Virus record (IMG/VR): IMGVR_UViG_3300031754_000003 | Coordinates: 5,826 to 69,825 of that record | Source of the DNA: a virus | DNA: 64,000 nt | Strand: one strand, 5' to 3' | Shown: in pieces, positions 54,289-64,000 of the stretch | Layout of the letters: each line of letters begins with the position of its first letter | Position numbering within the stretch: the first letter of the stretch is position 1 | The notes under the pieces: model-generated | Told to the model about the DNA's origin: nothing | The model's input: only the letters and a program-made list of their open reading frames with translations | Database searches by the model: none | Translations under genes and position numbers: made by a program

Positions 54289-54751
54289 TCAGTTTGAACC
54301 GGGCCTCGATCATCTGCGCCATCTGATCCCGTCTTAAAGAGTGTTCGACGCGGATCGGATTGTCCTTGTCACCGGAAATCCTCCACACGTCGCGCCAATT
54401 CTCGGGATCTCGGTTCTTCAGCCAAAAAATACACGCCACCGTCTCCGGAGGAAGATGCTCCACATAATCAACGACCACGGGACCATCCTTCGATGGCACC
54501 ACTTTCTGAGTCTGATGGCTGTAGCCGGTTGCCCGCGCCCACAACCGGCTCTCCACAATCTTCGTAGACTCAGCCCTGCTCAACTTCAGCGCAGCCGCAA
54601 ACTCCGGGTAACGGACCTTCCAATGACCAATCGTCTTATCCGTAACCCCGAAGAACTGTCCCAATTCAGCGTCCGTCGCCCCCAGGATCTGACGGATCTT
54701 CCGAGCCTGCTCCGGGAATTCCGGTTTGTAAACTTTCTCCGTCTTCGGCAT
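54263..54751 (-). CDS. terS: terminase small subunit
   Basis: Start at MPKTEKVYKPEF (TAATG overlap); GATDAELGQFFGV...WK..YPEF, RATGY, PPETVACIFWLKNRDPENWRD. Confidence 0.85.
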   Translation of the reverse strand: MPKTEKVYKPEFPEQARKIRQILGATDAELGQFFGVTDKTIGHWKVRYPEFAAALKLSRAESTKIVESRLWARATGYSHQTQKVVPSKDGPVVVDYVEHLPPETVACIFWLKNRDPENWRDVWRISGDKDNPIRVEHSLRRDQMAQMIEARFKLIDAPTSDS

Positions 54752-55353
54752 TACGGACCAGTGATCGTCGCCCCTTGGGGATTGAAGTCGCCAGTCTCCG
54801 CTACCGGAACCGGAACCACCGTCACCACCATCGGCGCCACCTGCGCCGGGCCAACATCCGGCGGCGCGCTCGTCCCCGTATAAGTGCAATTCGCCGCCGC
54901 CGTCGTTACCGAAACCCCATGGCAATGCCAAGTTATAAGGTCGGCATCCAAAGTGATCGTAACCGCCGGGCTGTCACTCACCACAGCCCCATCTTGAGGC
55001 GGAGTCGTTTCGCTAAACGACAGCGTACCCGTCGCCGTTTGACCAACTTCCAATTCTAAAACACTCACCGTAACCTCCATCGGAACGGATTTCACAAGAC
55101 CCGCCGGCGGGTTGAACATCCCAACCGACGGCGCCGCCACCAATTGCTGTAATGTCGCGTCAATCGCCGCTAGCTTCTGAAGGATCTGCTGTACTACCGA
55201 ACTTATCGTCGCAGCCGAGATCTCCAAGGCCGCATCACGCACGCTCACAGCAAAAGACGGCATACCCATCTCGTACCACGAGATCACTCTACTAACAAGG
55301 TTTCGGTTTCGGAATGATCCCCTCCGGAGTCGCAATCGCCGGCGCCTTCCCAC
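54751..55353 (-). CDS. hypothetical protein with Ig-like C-terminal domain (true start probably downstream of 55353)
   Basis: Coiled segment, then LEVGQTATGTL...beta-rich region. Confidence 0.5.
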   Translation of the reverse strand: MGRRRRLRLRRGSFRNRNLVSRVISWYEMGMPSFAVSVRDAALEISAATISSVVQQILQKLAAIDATLQQLVAAPSVGMFNPPAGLVKSVPMEVTVSVLELEVGQTATGTLSFSETTPPQDGAVVSDSPAVTITLDADLITWHCHGVSVTTAAANCTYTGTSAPPDVGPAQVAPMVVTVVPVPVAETGDFNPQGATITGP

Positions 55354-55593
55354 TCCCGCTGCACCGATCGCAAAACTTCGGCCATGGCTCCGCAGGCACC
55401 CTCCCCAACCCCTTGCAGTCCGGACACTCGATCTGCAACTCTACGTGCCTCACTACTCCCTCCCTAAGAAAAGCGCCCCCCGGCGGCGTGGAGAGACTTA
55501 TCTCCCTCAGGGGGCGCACCAGCAGACCATCCGCTGGATACAAATCCAAAACCTCCGCCGTCGAATTGCTCGGCATCCCCCATATCACCTTGA

Positions 55594-56019
55594 TCACCCT
55601 TCGTCCCTCGCTCGGTAAGCCTGCTGCCGACATGCGTCCGAGCAATACACCGCTCGTGGGTGCCTCGGCACAAACCCAACTCCACACCTAGCACAATTCC
55701 GCTCGGCAGGTTGCGTGACAGACTCATCAGGTTGCGTGACAGACTCATCAGGTTGCGTGACAGACTCGGCAGGTTGCGTGACACGACCAGGTTCGTCACG
55801 AACCCTCACCACCCCCGCGAGCCGCGCCGCAGCCCGTAGCTCATCACAGCATTCGATCACCGGAACCCCGCCGCGCATCACCGTCTTCGGCCGCGGTAGC
55901 TTCCCATCCCTGATCCTACACCCCCATTCGCACGAACAATCCCACCACCCGTTCCCTACCCCTCCGCAGAACAAACACCGCGATACCTCCGCCCCATGAA
56001 TCCCGCCAAAATGCGCCAA
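55594..56019 (-). CDS. Zn-ribbon protein with 4x heptapeptide repeat
   Basis: CLFC, CARC...YCSDACRQQAYR; VTQP(A/D)E(S/R) repeats. Confidence 0.55.
   Translation of the reverse strand: MAHFGGIHGAEVSRCLFCGGVGNGWWDCSCEWGCRIRDGKLPRPKTVMRGGVPVIECCDELRAAARLAGVVRVRDEPGRVTQPAESVTQPDESVTQPDESVTQPAERNCARCGVGFVPRHPRAVYCSDACRQQAYRARDEG
55702..55783. repeat. 21-bp tandem repeat x about 4
   Basis: CTC(GG/AT)CAGGTTGCGTGACAGA units at 55702, 55723, 55744, 55765; followed by near-palindrome GGTTCGTCACGAACC (55790-55804). Confidence 0.95.
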
Positions 56020-56264
56020 TTCCTAAGCCTTTCTACCCAAACCACATACACTAACCAAAACCTAACACCGCTCCGCAAAATCCCCAAAAATTTTCAAAAA
56101 TCTGAGTCGCGACACACAGGCGGGGGACGTCGATGGAGCGGGAGAGCCCACGATTGCCCCCTCCCCCCGGCACTCCGCCCTCGCGGCCAAAAACTAGGGA
56201 CAGGCTAGAGACAATTTGGCCATCTCGCCACCTACGTGCTTGATATCGCTCGCTAAGGAACAGA

Positions 56265-56633
56265 TTACGTGTCTGTTAGGCTTGATGCGCGCGTTTTCGT
56301 TTGCCGCTGCGCCCTGGTTTGTGTGTCCCTCTCCTCTTTCTTTATGTGTCGGCGTTTTTGGCATGCGTTTGTATCTGGCTCAGAGTCTCTTAGCGTTAGG
56401 GGGTAGGTGTTATGCTCATTTGGGCGGATTTTCGCTTCGGCTTGCATTTGGCGCATGGTCTCGCGGTCCTTGGCTTTGAGGATGAGCATGTGCGCTTGTT
56501 TGAGTGAGACGCATCCATCGCCATCGAGGCGTTCGATGCGCGCGGCTATGTCTGATAGCGTGTATCCTTGGCGTTGCAGATCAAGCGCATAGTCTTGACG
56601 CTCTTGGTGTATCTGTTTCATTCTTCCGAGCAT
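56265..56633 (-). CDS. HTH DNA-binding protein
   Basis: ALDLQRQGYTLSDIAARI HTH-like; basic C-terminus. Confidence 0.55.
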   Translation of the reverse strand: MLGRMKQIHQERQDYALDLQRQGYTLSDIAARIERLDGDGCVSLKQAHMLILKAKDRETMRQMQAEAKIRPNEHNTYPLTLRDSEPDTNACQKRRHIKKEERDTQTRAQRQTKTRASSLTDT

Positions 56634-56830
56634 TGTTTCACCGCGAGTTCGACGACGTGGGGGAATTGGCAGATGGTCGCGAGTAGCACGTTTGCGGCTC
56701 GATCGGGCTTTCGTGAGCCGCGTTCCCATTGCGCGTAGGTGATCGTGATCAGACCGAATTTTCGGGCGAATTTAGCCTGAGATAAACGCATCTCTCGACG
56801 CTTGATATGAGCTGCTTCGATCGGCTCCAT
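56618..56830 (-). CDS. XRE-family HTH protein, HigA/NadS antitoxin-like
   Basis: RREMRLSQAKFARKFGL...YAQWERGSRKPDRAANVLLATI. Confidence 0.8.
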   Translation of the reverse strand: MEPIEAAHIKRREMRLSQAKFARKFGLITITYAQWERGSRKPDRAANVLLATICQFPHVVELAVKQCSEE

Positions 56831-56983
56831 AAAGGCTGAGATAGCGCGTCGAAACCGCTATTCAACGGCACAATTTAGGGCTGTTTTGAGCACGATTCGG
56901 GAACATGCAGCAATTTGGCTCAGGGAATACGCGGGAGAACGTAGGATTCGTTCTCCGTGAGGTTCCCATAGGATTATTTCTGA

Positions 56984-57012
56984 TTGCGTTACGGACAAAG
57001 CGTCCTTATGTT
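56984..57012 (+). promoter_or_regulatory. sigma70-type promoter with operator in the spacer
   Basis: TTGCGT-17nt-TATGTT; spacer holds CGGACAAAGCGTCC. Confidence 0.7.
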
Positions 57013-57081
57013 CATGGTCGAGGGCGAGACGCGATCGCCAAACTGAATCGGGAAGGCCAGCAACCCAATGCAAATGGCACT

Positions 57082-57133
57082 TAGGGTAGCGCCGTATGAG
57101 TCGGCGCCTGACGAGCTTAGGAGCGAAACCCTA
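57082..57133 (+). ncRNA. type III hammerhead ribozyme
   Basis: UAGGGUA^ / stem I GCGCCG-UAUGAGU-CGGCGC / CUGACGA / stem II GCU-UAGG-AGC / GAAA / CCCUA pairing back to UAGGG; all core nucleotides present. Confidence 0.92.
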
Positions 57134-57240
57134 TGAACGATATTGCCTTCTACAGCAGCATCCTAGGACCGATGCTTATTATGATGGCGATCAGCGTTTA
57201 TCGCGTCGTTCGCGACGCTCGATCGCGCATATGCACCTGA
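57133..57240 (+). CDS. 35-aa single-TM peptide
   Basis: MNDIAFYSSILGPMLIMMAISVYRVVRDARSRICT; AGGAG RBS 9 nt upstream; stop overlaps the next RBS. Confidence 0.6.
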   Translation: MNDIAFYSSILGPMLIMMAISVYRVVRDARSRICT

Positions 57241-57251
57241 GGGAGTGGAAC

Positions 57252-57518
57252 ATGGTTGATACTACAACTGAAATCACATTCGATGATGGCGATGCGCTCT
57301 GCGAAAACGTCTGGATTAACGGACATCTTATCGGCCGCATTTGGACTGATGGCGAGGGATGCGGCTATCAAGCCCGCGCAACGTCGAATATCTCCGGCTA
57401 TTGGACGTCTATGACAACCGCATTTGAAACACGGACTAGCGCGTTACGTGCGCTCACGGCACAAGCTCGATTCGAGCGCGAACCGTATTTGCTCAGTGAT
57501 GAAACCTATGAATTGTAA
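57252..57518 (+). CDS. hypothetical early protein
   Basis: GAGGGAG RBS before MVDTTT. Confidence 0.6.
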   Translation: MVDTTTEITFDDGDALCENVWINGHLIGRIWTDGEGCGYQARATSNISGYWTSMTTAFETRTSALRALTAQARFEREPYLLSDETYEL

Positions 57519-57566
57519 TCCCCTCATTCTTCGGTCGTAACCCATTCATTCAGAGAGGCAAATCAA

Positions 57567-57722
57567 ATGACGAGTGCAGGCGGTATTCCACAAGGTCGAC
57601 CAAAATCACACAAGCTTTACGATCGTTCTGCCATAGGCAACGGTAGCGATGGCTTAGCGTCGCTTGGCGGAGGAGTTATAGCGGCGCTTGCTTTCCTAAT
57701 CCTTTTCGCCTTAGCGCTTTAA
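57567..57722 (+). CDS. 51-aa protein with C-terminal TM helix
   Basis: GAGAGG RBS; ends GGGVIAALAFLILFALAL. Confidence 0.55.
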   Translation: MTSAGGIPQGRPKSHKLYDRSAIGNGSDGLASLGGGVIAALAFLILFALAL

Positions 57723-57943
57723 TTCGGAAGGGCGAACAAGCCAGGCGAACCTATGAGGTATGGAAGCTAGATATTTCTGCTCCACATTCCTGCGTCTATT
57801 ACGAAGGTTCGTGGTGCAATTTCTGGACATCCCCAGGACTATGGGATGATAGCGGCATGCCAACACATGCTATGACGCTGACAGCAGAACTGCGTCGTCG
57901 CGGTCTAAATCGATAACCCCTAGCATTCGGGAGCGGAACCCAA

Positions 57944-58519
57944 ATGACAGACAAAATCACCTATGGCTTGCAGATTTACACCAGGTATTCTCACGGCTGC
58001 CATCATGTGAGCGCGATGGTCATGCGTCGCGAGCATTCGGGTGATAGGCAGGATCAGCCGCTTGGCATATCGTCCGATGATCAATATCGCGCGTATCGGG
58101 ATAACGAGCCGAAACACCTAGTTGGTCTTCAAATGCAGGGTCTCGGGATGGATGGGTTTGTCAGCGCAGAATATGCGAAATCGCCTGACGACATCCATTT
58201 CATCGGCCACGATATCGAATATCGCGATGTCTATTCGATTGATCTTGATGATGCCAGCAGGATGTTGAAGACGCTCAAACTCGTACACAAGCGGGCTGAA
58301 ACCGATAACTCGCACGAGCCAGGAGATTTGTTCGCTAGCCTTTGCGTGGCCCTTAAGCTGTCGTGGGTTTGCGAGCTGCGAGACAACGATACATCTCGCC
58401 GGTTCCCAGAATGGCGTTGGATGAGCGTCGGCGAAGGGCGTAATCGTTATCGCCAGCTAATAGCGGAAGCGGTGTCAACTGCCATCGCAACTAAGTTCCA
58501 GAATAGCGTCGCAGCGTAA
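57944..58519 (+). CDS. hypothetical early protein
   Basis: GGAGCGGA RBS, 191-aa ORF. Confidence 0.7.
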   Translation: MTDKITYGLQIYTRYSHGCHHVSAMVMRREHSGDRQDQPLGISSDDQYRAYRDNEPKHLVGLQMQGLGMDGFVSAEYAKSPDDIHFIGHDIEYRDVYSIDLDDASRMLKTLKLVHKRAETDNSHEPGDLFASLCVALKLSWVCELRDNDTSRRFPEWRWMSVGEGRNRYRQLIAEAVSTAIATKFQNSVAA

Positions 58520-58558
58520 CGAACACTGACGCCAAGCTCGTAACCAGGAGCAGAACTC

Positions 58559-58747
58559 ATGATTGAGATTAATCAACGTGGCGAGCGAGACTGGGCTGTG
58601 TACGTAGATGGTGAGTATAAAGGTACCGTCTCGGAAATCGGTATTCGGCAATTCGAGTACGTTTGCACGCATAGCTTTGCGCGCTACGACACACGCGAAC
58701 AGGCGATTTCCTTTCTCGTGGCCAGAAATTCCACCGGATGGCTGTGA
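58559..58747 (+). CDS. hypothetical early protein
   Basis: AGGAG RBS, 62 aa. Confidence 0.6.
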   Translation: MIEINQRGERDWAVYVDGEYKGTVSEIGIRQFEYVCTHSFARYDTREQAISFLVARNSTGWL

Positions 58748-58852
58748 GCAACTTCACAGCATAATAGCATCGGGCCAGATAGGGCATGCATCCCGACACG
58801 CGCGTTTCCGCCGCGCTTCTGGCCCGTCATAGCGGACATAGGAGCGGAGACT

Positions 58853-59035
58853 ATGACGTATTATCCGGAAGGCTACTTCAAGAGCGACGCGTTCAAAGCA
58901 TCTGAACGCGGTTACGAGACCGAGGAGGGCGCGCGGGAAGCGCGAAAGCTCCAAGCTCACCCTGGAAACTGGTACGTCTGGCAAATGAACGATGGCCGCT
59001 GGCATATCAGCCTCATGACCAATCGCGATATTTAA
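58853..59035 (+). CDS. hypothetical early protein
   Basis: AGGAG RBS, 60 aa. Confidence 0.6.
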   Translation: MTYYPEGYFKSDAFKASERGYETEEGAREARKLQAHPGNWYVWQMNDGRWHISLMTNRDI

Positions 59036-59056
59036 CCCAAGCTGGAGCGAACCGAA

Positions 59057-59233
59057 ATGAAAAACTGGATTGATATAGAGACCAAATCCGATCAATCGGC
59101 TGTCATTTTGACCCTTATAATCAAGGAAAAGCCGCTAGCATGGATCACTTATGACCCTGTTCAATTAGATGAGCTAATCAGACTCCTCGAAAACCATCGC
59201 CGAGCATTGGTATTGCCGGAACCCGTGCCATAG
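59057..59233 (+). CDS. hypothetical 58-aa protein
   Basis: GGAG RBS; MKTGLDIETKSDQSAVILTLIIKEKPLAWITYDPVQLDELIRLL... Confidence 0.55.
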   Translation: MKNWIDIETKSDQSAVILTLIIKEKPLAWITYDPVQLDELIRLLENHRRALVLPEPVP

Positions 59234-59244
59234 GAGCGGAGATT

Positions 59245-59577
59245 ATGAAACTTACAGCTATATGCGCTGCGGCATTAGTCGCGGCATGCGCCGGACGCGA
59301 TCCGGCGCCCGTGCCATTGGTTCAACCGCAAGATAACCAAGCATCATGCGCCACCATTCGCGCCGAGCTAGCGGCGGGAGACAGGCGATTGGCCGATCTT
59401 GCCTCCGAGCAAGGTGGCAAGGTAGCGCAGAACGTCGCTGCCGGACTCGTGGGCATTCTAATCTGGCCTATATGGTTCGCTATGGATCTAAAGGGCGCGG
59501 CTAGCACTGATGCGGCCGCACTTGAAGATCGCCGCGCTTATCTCGGGCAGCTATACCAAGAGAAGCGTTGCGCCTAG
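59245..59577 (+). CDS. lipoprotein
   Basis: Lipobox LVAA|C; internal hydrophobic segment AAGLVGILIWPIWFAMD. Confidence 0.75.
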   Translation: MKLTAICAAALVAACAGRDPAPVPLVQPQDNQASCATIRAELAAGDRRLADLASEQGGKVAQNVAAGLVGILIWPIWFAMDLKGAASTDAAALEDRRAYLGQLYQEKRCA

Positions 59578-59581
59578 TTCC

Positions 59582-59617
59582 CCGCGTGCAGCGGCTCTGC
59601 ACAAAATCAGGAGAGAC
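59582..59617 (+). repeat. 36-bp hairpin+RBS repeat, copy 1
   Basis: CCGCGTGCAGCGGCTCTGCACAAAATCAGGAGAGAC; 35/36 identical to 60244-60279. Confidence 0.9.
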
Positions 59618-59623
59618 GAGAAG

Positions 59624-60226
59624 ATGAAAAACCTCATGTTAGCGAGCGCCGGATTGCTTGCGGCCGGGCTTGCCATGCCTGCGCTAGCCGACAACTATGG
59701 CTATATTATTCCCGGCATGGGACCGGGCAATATGTGGGCGCCAGGCTCTGTCTATCGTACTGCGGTCGTCGATAACTCCGGTTATGTCGATTATATGTTT
59801 GTTGAGCAAGGTCAGAATTGGCTTTGTGAGAATAGTTCCTACAGCACCACAGACACTACCGCCTATCCGGAAATCGGGTTATACGATCTCGGGGCCGCGA
59901 GCGGGTGGACCGGTATCGATCTCGTCAACAATCCAATTACGCTATCCAGCTACAGCGGCGATCTGATAGCCAGCTCCACAGCCAAGGTTGGCGGTACAGG
60001 CGATTTCAATACAGCGCATTTCTACGTCACCGCTGGTGATCTGCTCGCTTGGGTCAGCATTCAAGGCAATTCAACAGGTGGCGTAACGGCATGTCCCGGT
60101 GCCTTCGCTTACAATGACAACTCCCACGCTTATAAAGACCACAATGGAACGCTGCAAAGCCAAACGATTGCCACTCCCGGCGGAGAACTCGGCATTTTAA
60201 TTCACGTAACTCCCGGCGCTCCCTAA
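59624..60226 (+). CDS. secreted protein
   Basis: MKNLMLASAGLLAAGLAMPALA|D. Confidence 0.72.
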   Translation: MKNLMLASAGLLAAGLAMPALADNYGYIIPGMGPGNMWAPGSVYRTAVVDNSGYVDYMFVEQGQNWLCENSSYSTTDTTAYPEIGLYDLGAASGWTGIDLVNNPITLSSYSGDLIASSTAKVGGTGDFNTAHFYVTAGDLLAWVSIQGNSTGGVTACPGAFAYNDNSHAYKDHNGTLQSQTIATPGGELGILIHVTPGAP

Positions 60227-60243
60227 AATAACCGTTTAAATTA

Positions 60244-60279
60244 CCGCGTGCAGCGGATCTGCACAAAATCAGGAGAGAC
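60244..60279 (+). repeat. 36-bp hairpin+RBS repeat, copy 2
   Basis: CCGCGTGCAGCGGATCTGCACAAAATCAGGAGAGAC. Confidence 0.9.
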
Positions 60280-60281
60280 AA

Positions 60282-60623
60282 ATGAAAAAAGCTTTATTTG
60301 CCAGCGCTATGCTGGCGATCGGAGCGTTGACGTTCCCAGCCTACGCCGATCAGGGCACAATCAACAATGTCCATGTAGGACTCGGAGCTCAAGGCGGTTT
60401 GGCAGTAGGTGGCTGTGTGGCATTCGACCTAGTGCGATCGGATGGCACTGTTCAGCGCTATGGCATGGGCGGTAGCCAGCAAGCCGGGCCTCTTTATCAA
60501 GAGGCAATCTTGACAGGCAAGGGTCAGTTGGTCGGTCTTGATCCCGCAACCGCACCATCAAACTGCGGCGGCGGATTACCTACGTTCCTAAATCTCAATT
60601 TCCCGCCTAAAGAAGGCCAATAA
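60282..60623 (+). CDS. secreted protein
   Basis: MKKALFASAMLAIGALTFPAYA|D. Confidence 0.72.
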   Translation: MKKALFASAMLAIGALTFPAYADQGTINNVHVGLGAQGGLAVGGCVAFDLVRSDGTVQRYGMGGSQQAGPLYQEAILTGKGQLVGLDPATAPSNCGGGLPTFLNLNFPPKEGQ

Positions 60624-60701
60624 ATAAACGTCGCTTACTAAAACGGTTTCGAGGGGTCCGGACAAAACCCCTTAATTTCCCAAAACATGGAGATATCAAA
60701 A

Positions 60702-61034
60702 ATGAAAACGCTTCTGGCTAGCGTTTGCGCACTAGCTCTTACGATCGGATCGGCCAAAGCCGATCACGTTATAAGCTATGCCTTTTATGATGAACCAGGC
60801 ACTACGAAGGTACTTTATGTCATAACTGATCTCAATGGCGGAACGTGGTACGAGATTGATAATTTATATCCACAATACGGTAATGCACCTAACCCTGACT
60901 TTGACGAAACCTATGCGGCCATAGTCCACGCCATGACGAACGGTTACCTCGTAGGTGTTGGCACTGGCCAATGGGGAGTGGGTACAGGAGGGTTGCCTTT
61001 CATCGCTTGGTTTCAGGTCTATAGCCACAATTAA
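60702..61034 (+). CDS. secreted protein
   Basis: MKTLLASVCALALTIGSAKA|D; GGAG RBS. Confidence 0.7.
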   Translation: MKTLLASVCALALTIGSAKADHVISYAFYDEPGTTKVLYVITDLNGGTWYEIDNLYPQYGNAPNPDFDETYAAIVHAMTNGYLVGVGTGQWGVGTGGLPFIAWFQVYSHN

Positions 61035-61080
61035 TGATCCCGAGTCGGATCAACTATCTGAATAAACTAAGGAGATTGTA

Positions 61081-62202
61081 ATGACCATCACTCGACGGCG
61101 CCTGATTACGGGCGCCGTCGCGGTGGGTGCTATCCCACCTACCGCGGCGCTCGCGCAATCAGCGTTTCCGCAGAAGATGCTAAGCTATCTAGTTCCGACC
61201 ATTATTTCACCAGCAAACGCAGCAGTGAAATTCCCCGGAAACCCCGGAGATGGGTCGTTCCCCGCCGGCTTAGTCAATCTATCCGGCACCGGCATCTTCA
61301 CAGCCAACGCTCACGAACTTGACTTCTATACGACACCATGGGGGTTCACGACCTTTATGATGCAGTCGATCACACCGCCGGGAATTGGACAAACGCGTCC
61401 GATCTTCGGACTCAACGGGGTTCATGGGGAAGTCTTCAAGGTGTCGATCCTACCGCCGGGATCGTACCCAATCTATCCTCCCGGCGGCAATCCACGCAAC
61501 GGCCCAGTATATAGGAACTTCGGCGGTTCCGTTCTGGATGTATATGTCGCCAATCCCAATGGGGCACAATCTCTGTTTCAGAGATGGTACGCGGCTATCC
61601 CATATCTATTCGACGGGGTAATTCACATCGTAGAGAGTTTCCTTAACTCGAACGATGATCCTGTGGGTGGATCAACCCCTTTTGGACATCGAGTACTCGT
61701 GGATAATCAAGAGTTTAATGTTTACATGGGGCCGGGGCAAAATCCGCGCGCATTAAATTCCCCATTCGAGATCCCTTGGGGAGAAGATGGCGGTAATCCG
61801 GCTCCATACGCTTGGGTAGGTTCCGATTACCCTATCTACGGTGCCCCCCCAAACGCCGCTACAGCGTGGGCTAACACTTATATCGGGGATATGGATCGCC
61901 TCATGATTGATCCAAAAGCACCGGTTCCACCCGAAAGCATCCCCAACGTGTTCATGTCGCCTACGGGTACAGTCAAGATCCTGCCCCCAGACGGGGCTAA
62001 TGTATTGTATCCGGGGCAAAAACCGCCAGGGGTTTACCTCCACGGTAGTACATCGCCTCGCGGCTTCCGATACAACCAAGGCGGAAGCTATTACGGGGAT
62101 GTTGGGGGGCCGCTGGATACTCGGTTTAACAACCCATCCGGAGAGCCGCAGGTAATCATAGAGCATATTGATATCGGCGGCCCCGGTGGGGGCGATCCAT
62201 AA
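61081..62202 (+). CDS. Tat-exported Pro/Gly-rich protein
   Basis: MTITRRRLITGAVAVGAIPPTAALA|Q twin-arginine signal; AAGGAG RBS. Confidence 0.72.
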   Translation: MTITRRRLITGAVAVGAIPPTAALAQSAFPQKMLSYLVPTIISPANAAVKFPGNPGDGSFPAGLVNLSGTGIFTANAHELDFYTTPWGFTTFMMQSITPPGIGQTRPIFGLNGVHGEVFKVSILPPGSYPIYPPGGNPRNGPVYRNFGGSVLDVYVANPNGAQSLFQRWYAAIPYLFDGVIHIVESFLNSNDDPVGGSTPFGHRVLVDNQEFNVYMGPGQNPRALNSPFEIPWGEDGGNPAPYAWVGSDYPIYGAPPNAATAWANTYIGDMDRLMIDPKAPVPPESIPNVFMSPTGTVKILPPDGANVLYPGQKPPGVYLHGSTSPRGFRYNQGGSYYGDVGGPLDTRFNNPSGEPQVIIEHIDIGGPGGGDP

Positions 62203-63726: not shown

Positions 63727-64000
63727 ATGATCCCAGCCACCATGATCACCTTCCCCGACCTCTCCCATTATAACAAAGTCACGGTTGACCCGTTCGCTCT
63801 AGGCCCCGCGCTGATCAACAAGACGACCCAGGGCAACTCCTTCGTTGATCCAACGTGGCTCCATCGCGCGCAAGATGTGTTCTGGGGCGGCAAACTCATC
63901 GGGGGATACCTGTTCGCAACCGGCGACGACCCTAACTCACAGGTGACATTGTTTCTGAGCACGGTTGAGAGCGCTCTAGGTACGATGGCGCACCCTCGAC
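63727..64000 (+). CDS. GH25 lysozyme endolysin (runs off the window end)
   Basis: GAGG RBS; PDLSHYN...INKTTQGNSFVDPTW...LIGGYLF GH25 N-terminal motifs; not in the ORF track because it is truncated. Confidence 0.78.
   Translation, partial: MIPATMITFPDLSHYNKVTVDPFALGPALINKTTQGNSFVDPTWLHRAQDVFWGGKLIGGYLFATGDDPNSQVTLFLSTVESALGTMAHPR

Follow-up and report, generated by a model that had tools for sequence, protein, structure and literature searches.

Cleavage by a hammerhead ribozyme yields a downstream RNA with a 5′-OH, together with a 2′,3′-cyclic phosphate, and it is from a type III satellite-RNA hammerhead that the design of RiboJ derives. Natural hammerheads have been described in phages and prophages (Perreault et al., 2011; PMC3088659). 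Prophage hammerheads occur there in clusters that flank the genes of polycistronic transcripts, and HHphage, the hammerhead of the haloarchaeal viruses HF1 and HF2, stands 13 nt ahead of the first ORF in an early, polycistronic, non-structural transcript, where the mapped 5′ end falls within 3 nt of the cut site and the ribozyme was interpreted as the maker of the mRNA 5′ end (PMC3088659). A processing role, in which long transcripts are trimmed into shorter messages, has been proposed for phage hammerheads (PMC3088659; PMC6765202), and the second source describes hammerhead roles in bacteria and phages as still largely elusive. Two further systems place a self-cleaving ribozyme ahead of a coding region: RiboJ, a hammerhead joined to a hairpin that normalises 5′-UTRs and for which uncleaved mRNA is modelled as decaying faster (PMC7536230), and linear RNA viruses of fungi and plants, in which cleavage is tied to translation (PMC13725137).

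Here we describe a candidate hammerhead that probably belongs, judging by its sequence, to the known phage hammerhead ribozymes and that is distinguished by a compact overlap with a translation start. It lies in the DNA of an uncultured soil phage whose sequence closes on assembly into a circle of ~69.67 kb. The window analysed—the whole 64-kb stretch—comprises bases 5826–69825 of a 69,825-bp IMG/VR virus record rated 100% complete, and a 69,668-nt contig from soil metagenome run X2 covers 54500–60500 in two head-to-tail pieces. Two soil DNA runs that contain the phage show no difference in the element, and a third contains only fragments; the runs listed for this phage include none of RNA.

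The genes of this phage fall into two divergent blocks. A leftward, minus-strand block runs from an XRE-like regulator through the small terminase, large terminase and portal genes into a long structural block. A rightward block sets out from the ribozyme region with small ORFs and continues through several secreted proteins, an endolysin (lying across the contig ends) and Erf-like and exonuclease genes. The candidate falls where these blocks diverge and heads the rightward one; the divergent control region bounded by the XRE-like gene is 56831–56904 or 56831–57132. The features at issue are as follows.

56618–56830, minus strand: XRE-like helix-turn-helix gene, 70 aa (HTH_3 at E = 2.4e-4; 21.5 bits, where the cut-off is 23), annotated by the source gene callers.
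56905–57084, plus strand: 59-codon ORF, called in the source records; codon score 0.079 (ambiguous) and no homologue outside this phage.
57082–57133, plus strand: candidate type III hammerhead ribozyme, 52 nt, with the predicted cut between A57088 and G57089.
57082–57087, plus strand: 5′ strand of stem III (UAGGGU), its opening triplet, TAG, doubling as the stop of the 59-codon ORF.
57086–57088, plus strand: cleavage triplet GUA (G57086, U57087, A57088), an allowed N-U-H.
57089–57107, plus strand: stem I hairpin, GCGCCG (57089–57094) with CGGCGC (57102–57107) around loop UAUGAGU (57095–57101); prospective 5′ end of the downstream product.
57108–57114, plus strand: core CUGACGA, positions 3–9.
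57115–57124, plus strand: stem II, 3 bp, GCU (57115–57117) with AGC (57122–57124) around loop UAGG (57118–57121).
57125–57133, plus strand: core GAA (57125–57127; G12, A13, A14), followed by the 3′ strand of stem III, ACCCUA (57128–57133).
57133–57240, plus strand: 35-codon ORF (MNDIAFYSS...), with AGGAG 9 nt upstream and a TGA stop adjoining the GGGAG of the next gene.
57252–57518, plus strand: 88-aa gene, function unassigned, with its own GGGAG 5 nt before ATG; codon score 0.269.

All core positions and the three stems were read directly from 57082–57133, as UAGGGU-A / GCGCCG-UAUGAGU-CGGCGC-CUGACGA-GCU-UAGG-AGC-GAA-ACCCUA, where the slash marks the predicted cut. An earlier, sequence-only reading of this DNA had proposed a type III hammerhead here with a GUA site at 57088, and the consensus is indeed matched at every core position: C3, U4, G5, A6, N7, G8 and A9 are all in place, U57087 (16.1) pairs with A57128 (15.1), and G57115–C57124 supplies the G10.1–C11.1 closing pair of stem II. 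The stems contain 15 Watson-Crick pairs (six in stem I, three in stem II and six in stem III) with loops of 7 and 4 nt, and the topology is that of type III: loops cap stems I and II, and stem III is left open. By reading, loops 1 (UAUGAGU) and 2 (UAGG) have no Watson-Crick complementarity, a statement that does not extend to non-canonical contacts, which cannot be judged from sequence. Two further observations of the earlier reading hold on direct inspection: the Shine-Dalgarno (SD) motif AGGAG (57119–57123) falls within stem-loop II, spanning loop 2 and the 3′ strand of the stem, and A57133 is at once the closing base of stem III and the A of the ATG that opens the 35-codon ORF. The spacer between SD and AUG consists of the GAA core and the 3′ strand of stem III.

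The candidate resembles the phage and prophage hammerheads of Perreault et al. (2011) in its canonical core, phage location, position in a stop-to-start gap and proposed transcript-cutting role, and differs from them in being a single copy, whereas those are often clustered (PMC3088659). Like HHphage, a close precedent in print, it lies directly upstream of an ORF, but in HHphage the core is a variant one and the host an archaeon, whereas 57082–57133 has a canonical core and a start region that overlaps the ribozyme (PMC3088659). The likeness to RiboJ is that a hammerhead stands between the promoter or upstream RNA and the ribosome-binding site (RBS), with the ribozyme body kept as a structured 5′-OH end; RiboJ, however, is engineered and carries a separate 23-nt hairpin with the RBS outside the ribozyme, whereas the natural candidate has its RBS in stem-loop II and no extra hairpin (PMC7536230). 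The fungal and plant RNA viruses share with it a self-cleaving ribozyme ahead of an ORF, in a setting that is eukaryotic and cap-independent, with mostly type I hammerheads, whereas the present case is bacterial and SD-led (PMC13725137).

Searches against Rfam lent the candidate no support. At gathering thresholds there was no match to 57082–57133, RF00008 (Hammerhead_3) being absent from that position in a search of the whole record, and at E ≤ 10 over 351 nt around the site there were 0 matches. RF02276 (type II hammerhead) gave nothing usable, and no other Rfam ribozyme was found in the 69,825-bp record. The Rfam check put forward with the sequence-only reading thus came back without a usable match, the best being RF00008 in a 72-nt search, at 12.8 bits against a 48.5-bit cut-off and in a different register. 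That register, which uses GAGUC of loop 1, was rejected, leaving as it does a one-pair stem I and a mismatched stem III. The gathering threshold is the curators’ cut-off and not a biochemical criterion; the candidate has the same consensus core and open stem III as RF00008, and its stem-loop II is 10 nt long where that of the consensus is longer. Folding of the 52-mer put the hammerhead structure at −18.6 kcal/mol, 0.5 kcal/mol from an alternative minimum free energy fold at −19.1 kcal/mol; the stability of the 52-mer is not unusual (z = −1.59), and the three hammerhead helices make up 1–6% of the nearest-neighbour ensemble. As nearest-neighbour models ignore the tertiary core, this low share is weak evidence either way.

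Such results count in favour of a chance look-alike, in which the G+C-rich hairpin at 57089–57107 and its flanks would happen to fit the consensus with no relevant cleavage rate. That explanation draws on the want of Rfam support and of any homologue or covariation, on the small ensemble share, on a stem II of 3 bp and on the lack of evident loop-loop pairing. It also draws on PMC3088659, according to which 14 of 18 consensus hammerheads tested were active and 4 inactive, and whose authors caution that consensus matches arise by chance in large databases; the same paper records that a stem II as short as 2 bp is common among natural hammerheads.

Against chance stands the rarity of the pattern. 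A descriptor scan with minimum stem lengths (4/3/4, 5/3/5 and 6/3/6) was run on the 64-kb window and on the 69,825-bp record. The candidate was the sole match in the window and, at sensible thresholds, in the whole record, where minimal thresholds added three obviously loose matches; the record therefore holds one credible hammerhead of any type, with no clustering. Across 300 random Markov-1 windows, there were two matches at stems of 4/3/4. In a planted-core simulation of 200,000 random contexts, the expectation per window was 0.007 at 4/3/4 and 0.0008 at 5/3/5, and the 6/3/6 quality seen here was reached by none of the 200,000 planted cores. By extrapolation from this simulation, a few chance matches near the quality of 57082–57133 could turn up across a scan of 250,000 windows.

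The genomic setting also speaks against chance. Phage contigs often carry hammerheads: a core pattern search of viral contigs returned at least 118 stretches, and the matches listed contained at least 45 hammerheads that fit the descriptor. Of these, 42 are distinct, 38 being type I and 4 type III, and several often occur in one phage; this comparison sample was picked by descriptor and lacks experimental validation. In 30 of the 42 among the matches listed, an open frame upstream reaches its stop between −10 and +4 nt of the 5′ edge of the ribozyme, compared with 56 of 840 control positions (7%). For an SD-led start between −8 and +30 nt of the 3′ edge, the counts are 21 of the 42 and 73 of 840 controls (9%). 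Our candidate has both, with a stop at its 5′ edge and an SD-led start at its 3′ edge, and it lies on the coding strand of the downstream genes. This match in context with phage hammerheads gives greater confidence that the element is genuine. Weighing the low chance expectation and the shared setting against the points above, we regard a chance look-alike as unlikely, and 57082–57133 as probably a genuine hammerhead that would cut a rightward phage transcript.

Within the same sample the candidate stands apart in two respects: it belongs to type III, unlike the 38 type I ribozymes among the 42 phage hammerheads listed, and it contains the next SD and the first base of the start codon, whereas the next start lies a median of 21 nt after the ribozyme in those 42. 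A start at or before the 3′ edge was seen in at most 2 of the 42 among the matches listed, both apparent artefacts of the start finder. The inclusion of the next cistron’s SD and first start base inside the ribozyme is thus an unusual compaction. A literature search found no natural hammerhead with an embedded SD among the papers it listed, which is not proof of absence from print.

The sequence-only reading had set the ribozyme in a 5′ leader, about 70 nt downstream of a sigma70-type promoter. A promoter scan of 56500–57600 found 0 sigma-70-like sites; the best candidate at about that distance upstream, TTGCGT-17-TATGTT at 56985–57013, agrees with 7 of 12 consensus positions by our own count. 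Since no sigma-70 promoter was found, the release of a leader RNA of ~70 nt, which that reading had also expected, is left unsupported. Its early operon is likewise unproven, for the block runs on to secreted proteins, endolysin, Erf-like and exonuclease genes. Because the TAG that ends the 59-codon ORF provides the first bases of stem III, the ribozyme may instead be intercistronic, and the stop-ribozyme-start layout suggests an intercistronic position over one in a 5′ leader.

Several sequence features accompany this upstream region. Inside the 59-codon ORF, 56934–56981 contains an 8-bp hairpin (GGAGAACG / CGTTCTCC) with loop TAGGATT and a second TAGGATT..TTCT 27 nt later; together these might serve as a pair of operators or as a structured RNA element 5′ of the ribozyme. 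The 8-mer GGAACATG occurs at 56900–56907 and 57247–57254, forming the start context of the 59-codon ORF and the 88-aa gene alike. In addition, CATAGGATT (56967–56975) can pair at 8 of 9 positions with AACCCTATG (57127–57135, the 3′ strand of stem III plus the ATG), so that in longer transcripts it may compete with stem III.

The downstream side of the element raises the question of which ORFs are real. The source gene callers are split, giving a 140-aa product starting at 57096 on two contigs and the 88-aa product on one. Were the 140-aa ORF (57096–57518) the real gene, a hammerhead-like pattern would simply cross its start. The frame is open from 57096, and the protein collection includes the 140-aa product, contributed by two contigs. 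Yet the extension (57096–57251) has a codon score of −0.13, in the non-coding range, against 0.269 for the 88-aa part; no SD precedes 57096, GGGAG stands 5 nt before the ATG at 57252, and the caller chose the 88-aa start on the third contig. The 140-aa reading from 57096 was rejected on the codon score of its extension, and a protein-coding origin of the pattern is, to our minds, highly improbable.

The 35-codon ORF is less clear-cut. The sequence-only reading saw in it a transmembrane peptide of 35 aa, and the ORF itself, its SD spacing and a membrane-like core are in keeping with this: the best 19-residue Kyte-Doolittle mean is 1.91, and the peptide ends in a basic tail. Its codon score is 0.148 per codon, against 0.204 ± 0.12 for in-frame and −0.088 ± 0.16 for off-frame stop-free 35-codon stretches, from which we calculate a coding likelihood ratio of roughly 3.5. 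On the other hand, a search of 1.84 billion representatives gave no homologue, the source gene callers passed the ORF over, and the protein collection does not include it. A predicted gene at 57133–57240 is plausible, with modest support.

Taking the element as genuine, we propose that once the polymerase has passed 57133 the RNA would fold and cut itself between A57088 and G57089, parting the upstream RNA—a leader or the message of the 59-codon ORF—from the genes that follow. With stem III as the open helix, nearly the entire ribozyme would stay on the downstream RNA. That RNA would begin with a 5′-OH and the G+C-rich stem I hairpin, with AGGAG 31 nt and AUG 45 nt from the new end; the hairpin-capped 5′-OH RNA foreseen by the sequence-only reading is just what established hammerhead chemistry leads one to expect upon cleavage. 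That reading also held that the leader, secured by the 6-bp stem III, would then be released, which is reasonable given a computed −8.7 kcal/mol for the isolated duplex. The role we envisage is that of cutting a long transcript between cistrons so that the downstream message receives a defined, structured 5′ end, its stability and translation being uncoupled from upstream sequence, in what would be a natural counterpart of the RiboJ insulator. This account as a whole—a genuine type III hammerhead whose cut separates off the upstream RNA, with a processing or insulating role—is on balance the one we favour.

The embedding of a translation start in the ribozyme invites a bolder interpretation, in which the ribozyme fold hides the SD and start codon of the 35-codon ORF until self-cleavage and loss of the 5′ fragment switch translation on, making the element a gate or timer as well as an insulator. 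In its fullest form, the catalytic fold would be built from the gene’s own translation start, with the SD in stem-loop II, core and stem III as spacer and the AUG at a helix end; self-cleavage would compete with 30S binding, and the cut would both make the 5′ end of the operon and license a small membrane peptide. The geometry is suggestive, as is the unusual overlap with the start in comparison with other phage hammerheads, and the isolated stem III duplex is weak enough that the 5′ product should leave. The 35-codon ORF contributes its correct SD spacing, membrane-like core, stop beside the next SD and a codon score nearer to coding, and in eukaryotes some RNA-virus UTRs need self-cleavage for translation (PMC13725137).

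Folding, however, tells against masking. Opening the 30S footprint would take 9.6–11.4 kcal/mol in the cleaved RNA and 10.2–13.9 kcal/mol in uncleaved RNAs, a difference of 0–2.4 kcal/mol; the unpaired probabilities of SD and AUG are no higher after cleavage; and of the three AUG bases just one is paired, by an A-U at the end of the helix. The proposal in the sequence-only reading that cleavage exposes the start codon is therefore not borne out by these calculations. Nor does the ORF that would be gated have a homologue or a call in the source records, and selection on the overlap is without support from conservation, no relative having been found. We accordingly consider a gate of this kind improbable, and its fullest form, with a licensed membrane peptide, is to be doubted to the same degree. 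Were it true, the element would act as a kinetic gate that needs neither protein nor ligand, a natural parallel to the hammerhead switches engineered to mask an RBS.

Whichever role applies, the arrangement offers an experimental handle. Most phage copies among the matches listed lie ~20 nt before a start, making effects on processing and on translation hard to separate; with the RBS and start codon inside a 52-nt ribozyme, a reporter with an active or a dead core would separate translation from effects on the mRNA end and its stability. If the element cleaves, it would also provide a natural insulator part of very small size; if not, it would show that a consensus-perfect singleton is insufficient for activity.

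No relative carrying the element was found in the viral, metagenome or genome collections searched, and hence there is no covariation to draw on. By exact look-up, the clusters that contain the called ORFs have no members from outside this phage. Neither viral nor metagenome contigs gave a relative of the 88-aa protein, viral contigs gave none of a 191-aa protein likewise encoded downstream of the element, and blastn of 2 kb against a phage database gave no match. Distant relatives were recovered for the 154-aa ORF (two loci), the large terminase (five loci, 51–55% identity) and a 110-aa protein (one locus), and in these loci both a hammerhead and a common gene order were absent. Across five whole related records the core pattern occurred 11 times, never in a form that fits the descriptor. 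Searching with the exact core as a DNA pattern yielded 0 matches in viral contigs; six matches in genome contigs and one in metagenome contigs were set aside as not hammerheads, stems I and III not being formed. The core and stem-loop II string recur in one metagenome contig (L134, 518–539, minus strand), there with stems I and III of 4 and 5 bp; this match carries G at positions 16.1 and 17 and was rejected as a decayed hammerhead or a chance match.

Among the viral contigs, the loci L010, L026, L044, L045, L076, L090, L104, L108 and L123 each contain between two and four hammerheads, separated by a few hundred bases. Every one of these lies directly 3′ of a stop codon and ~20 nt before an SD-led start, and stem I sequences are common to the copies within a phage.

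Some features of the surrounding genes deserve mention. On the leftward side, the 70-aa XRE-like gene overlaps the 5′ part of the 154-aa ORF (56265–56729, minus strand) in a different frame. The source callers picked the 70-aa gene, and the 154-aa and 122-aa readings are absent from the protein collection, so the gene downstream of the XRE-like gene starts at another internal codon. Assemblies are interrupted within a short repeat at 55707–55757, which corresponds to tandem ‘ESVTQPD’-like peptide repeats in a minus-strand ORF at 55594–56019. On the rightward side, 59245–62202 holds five consecutive ORFs with signal-peptide-like or lipoprotein-like N-termini, none with a Pfam family and one (61081–62202) with a twin-arginine-like start; the 110-aa protein of this run matches phrog_13472 and has one relative at 57% identity (L136). 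The endolysin, which has a GH25-like N-terminus and matches PHROG endolysin families, is cut in two where the linear record happens to begin and end, its parts lying at 63727–64000 of the window and 33–479 of L135.
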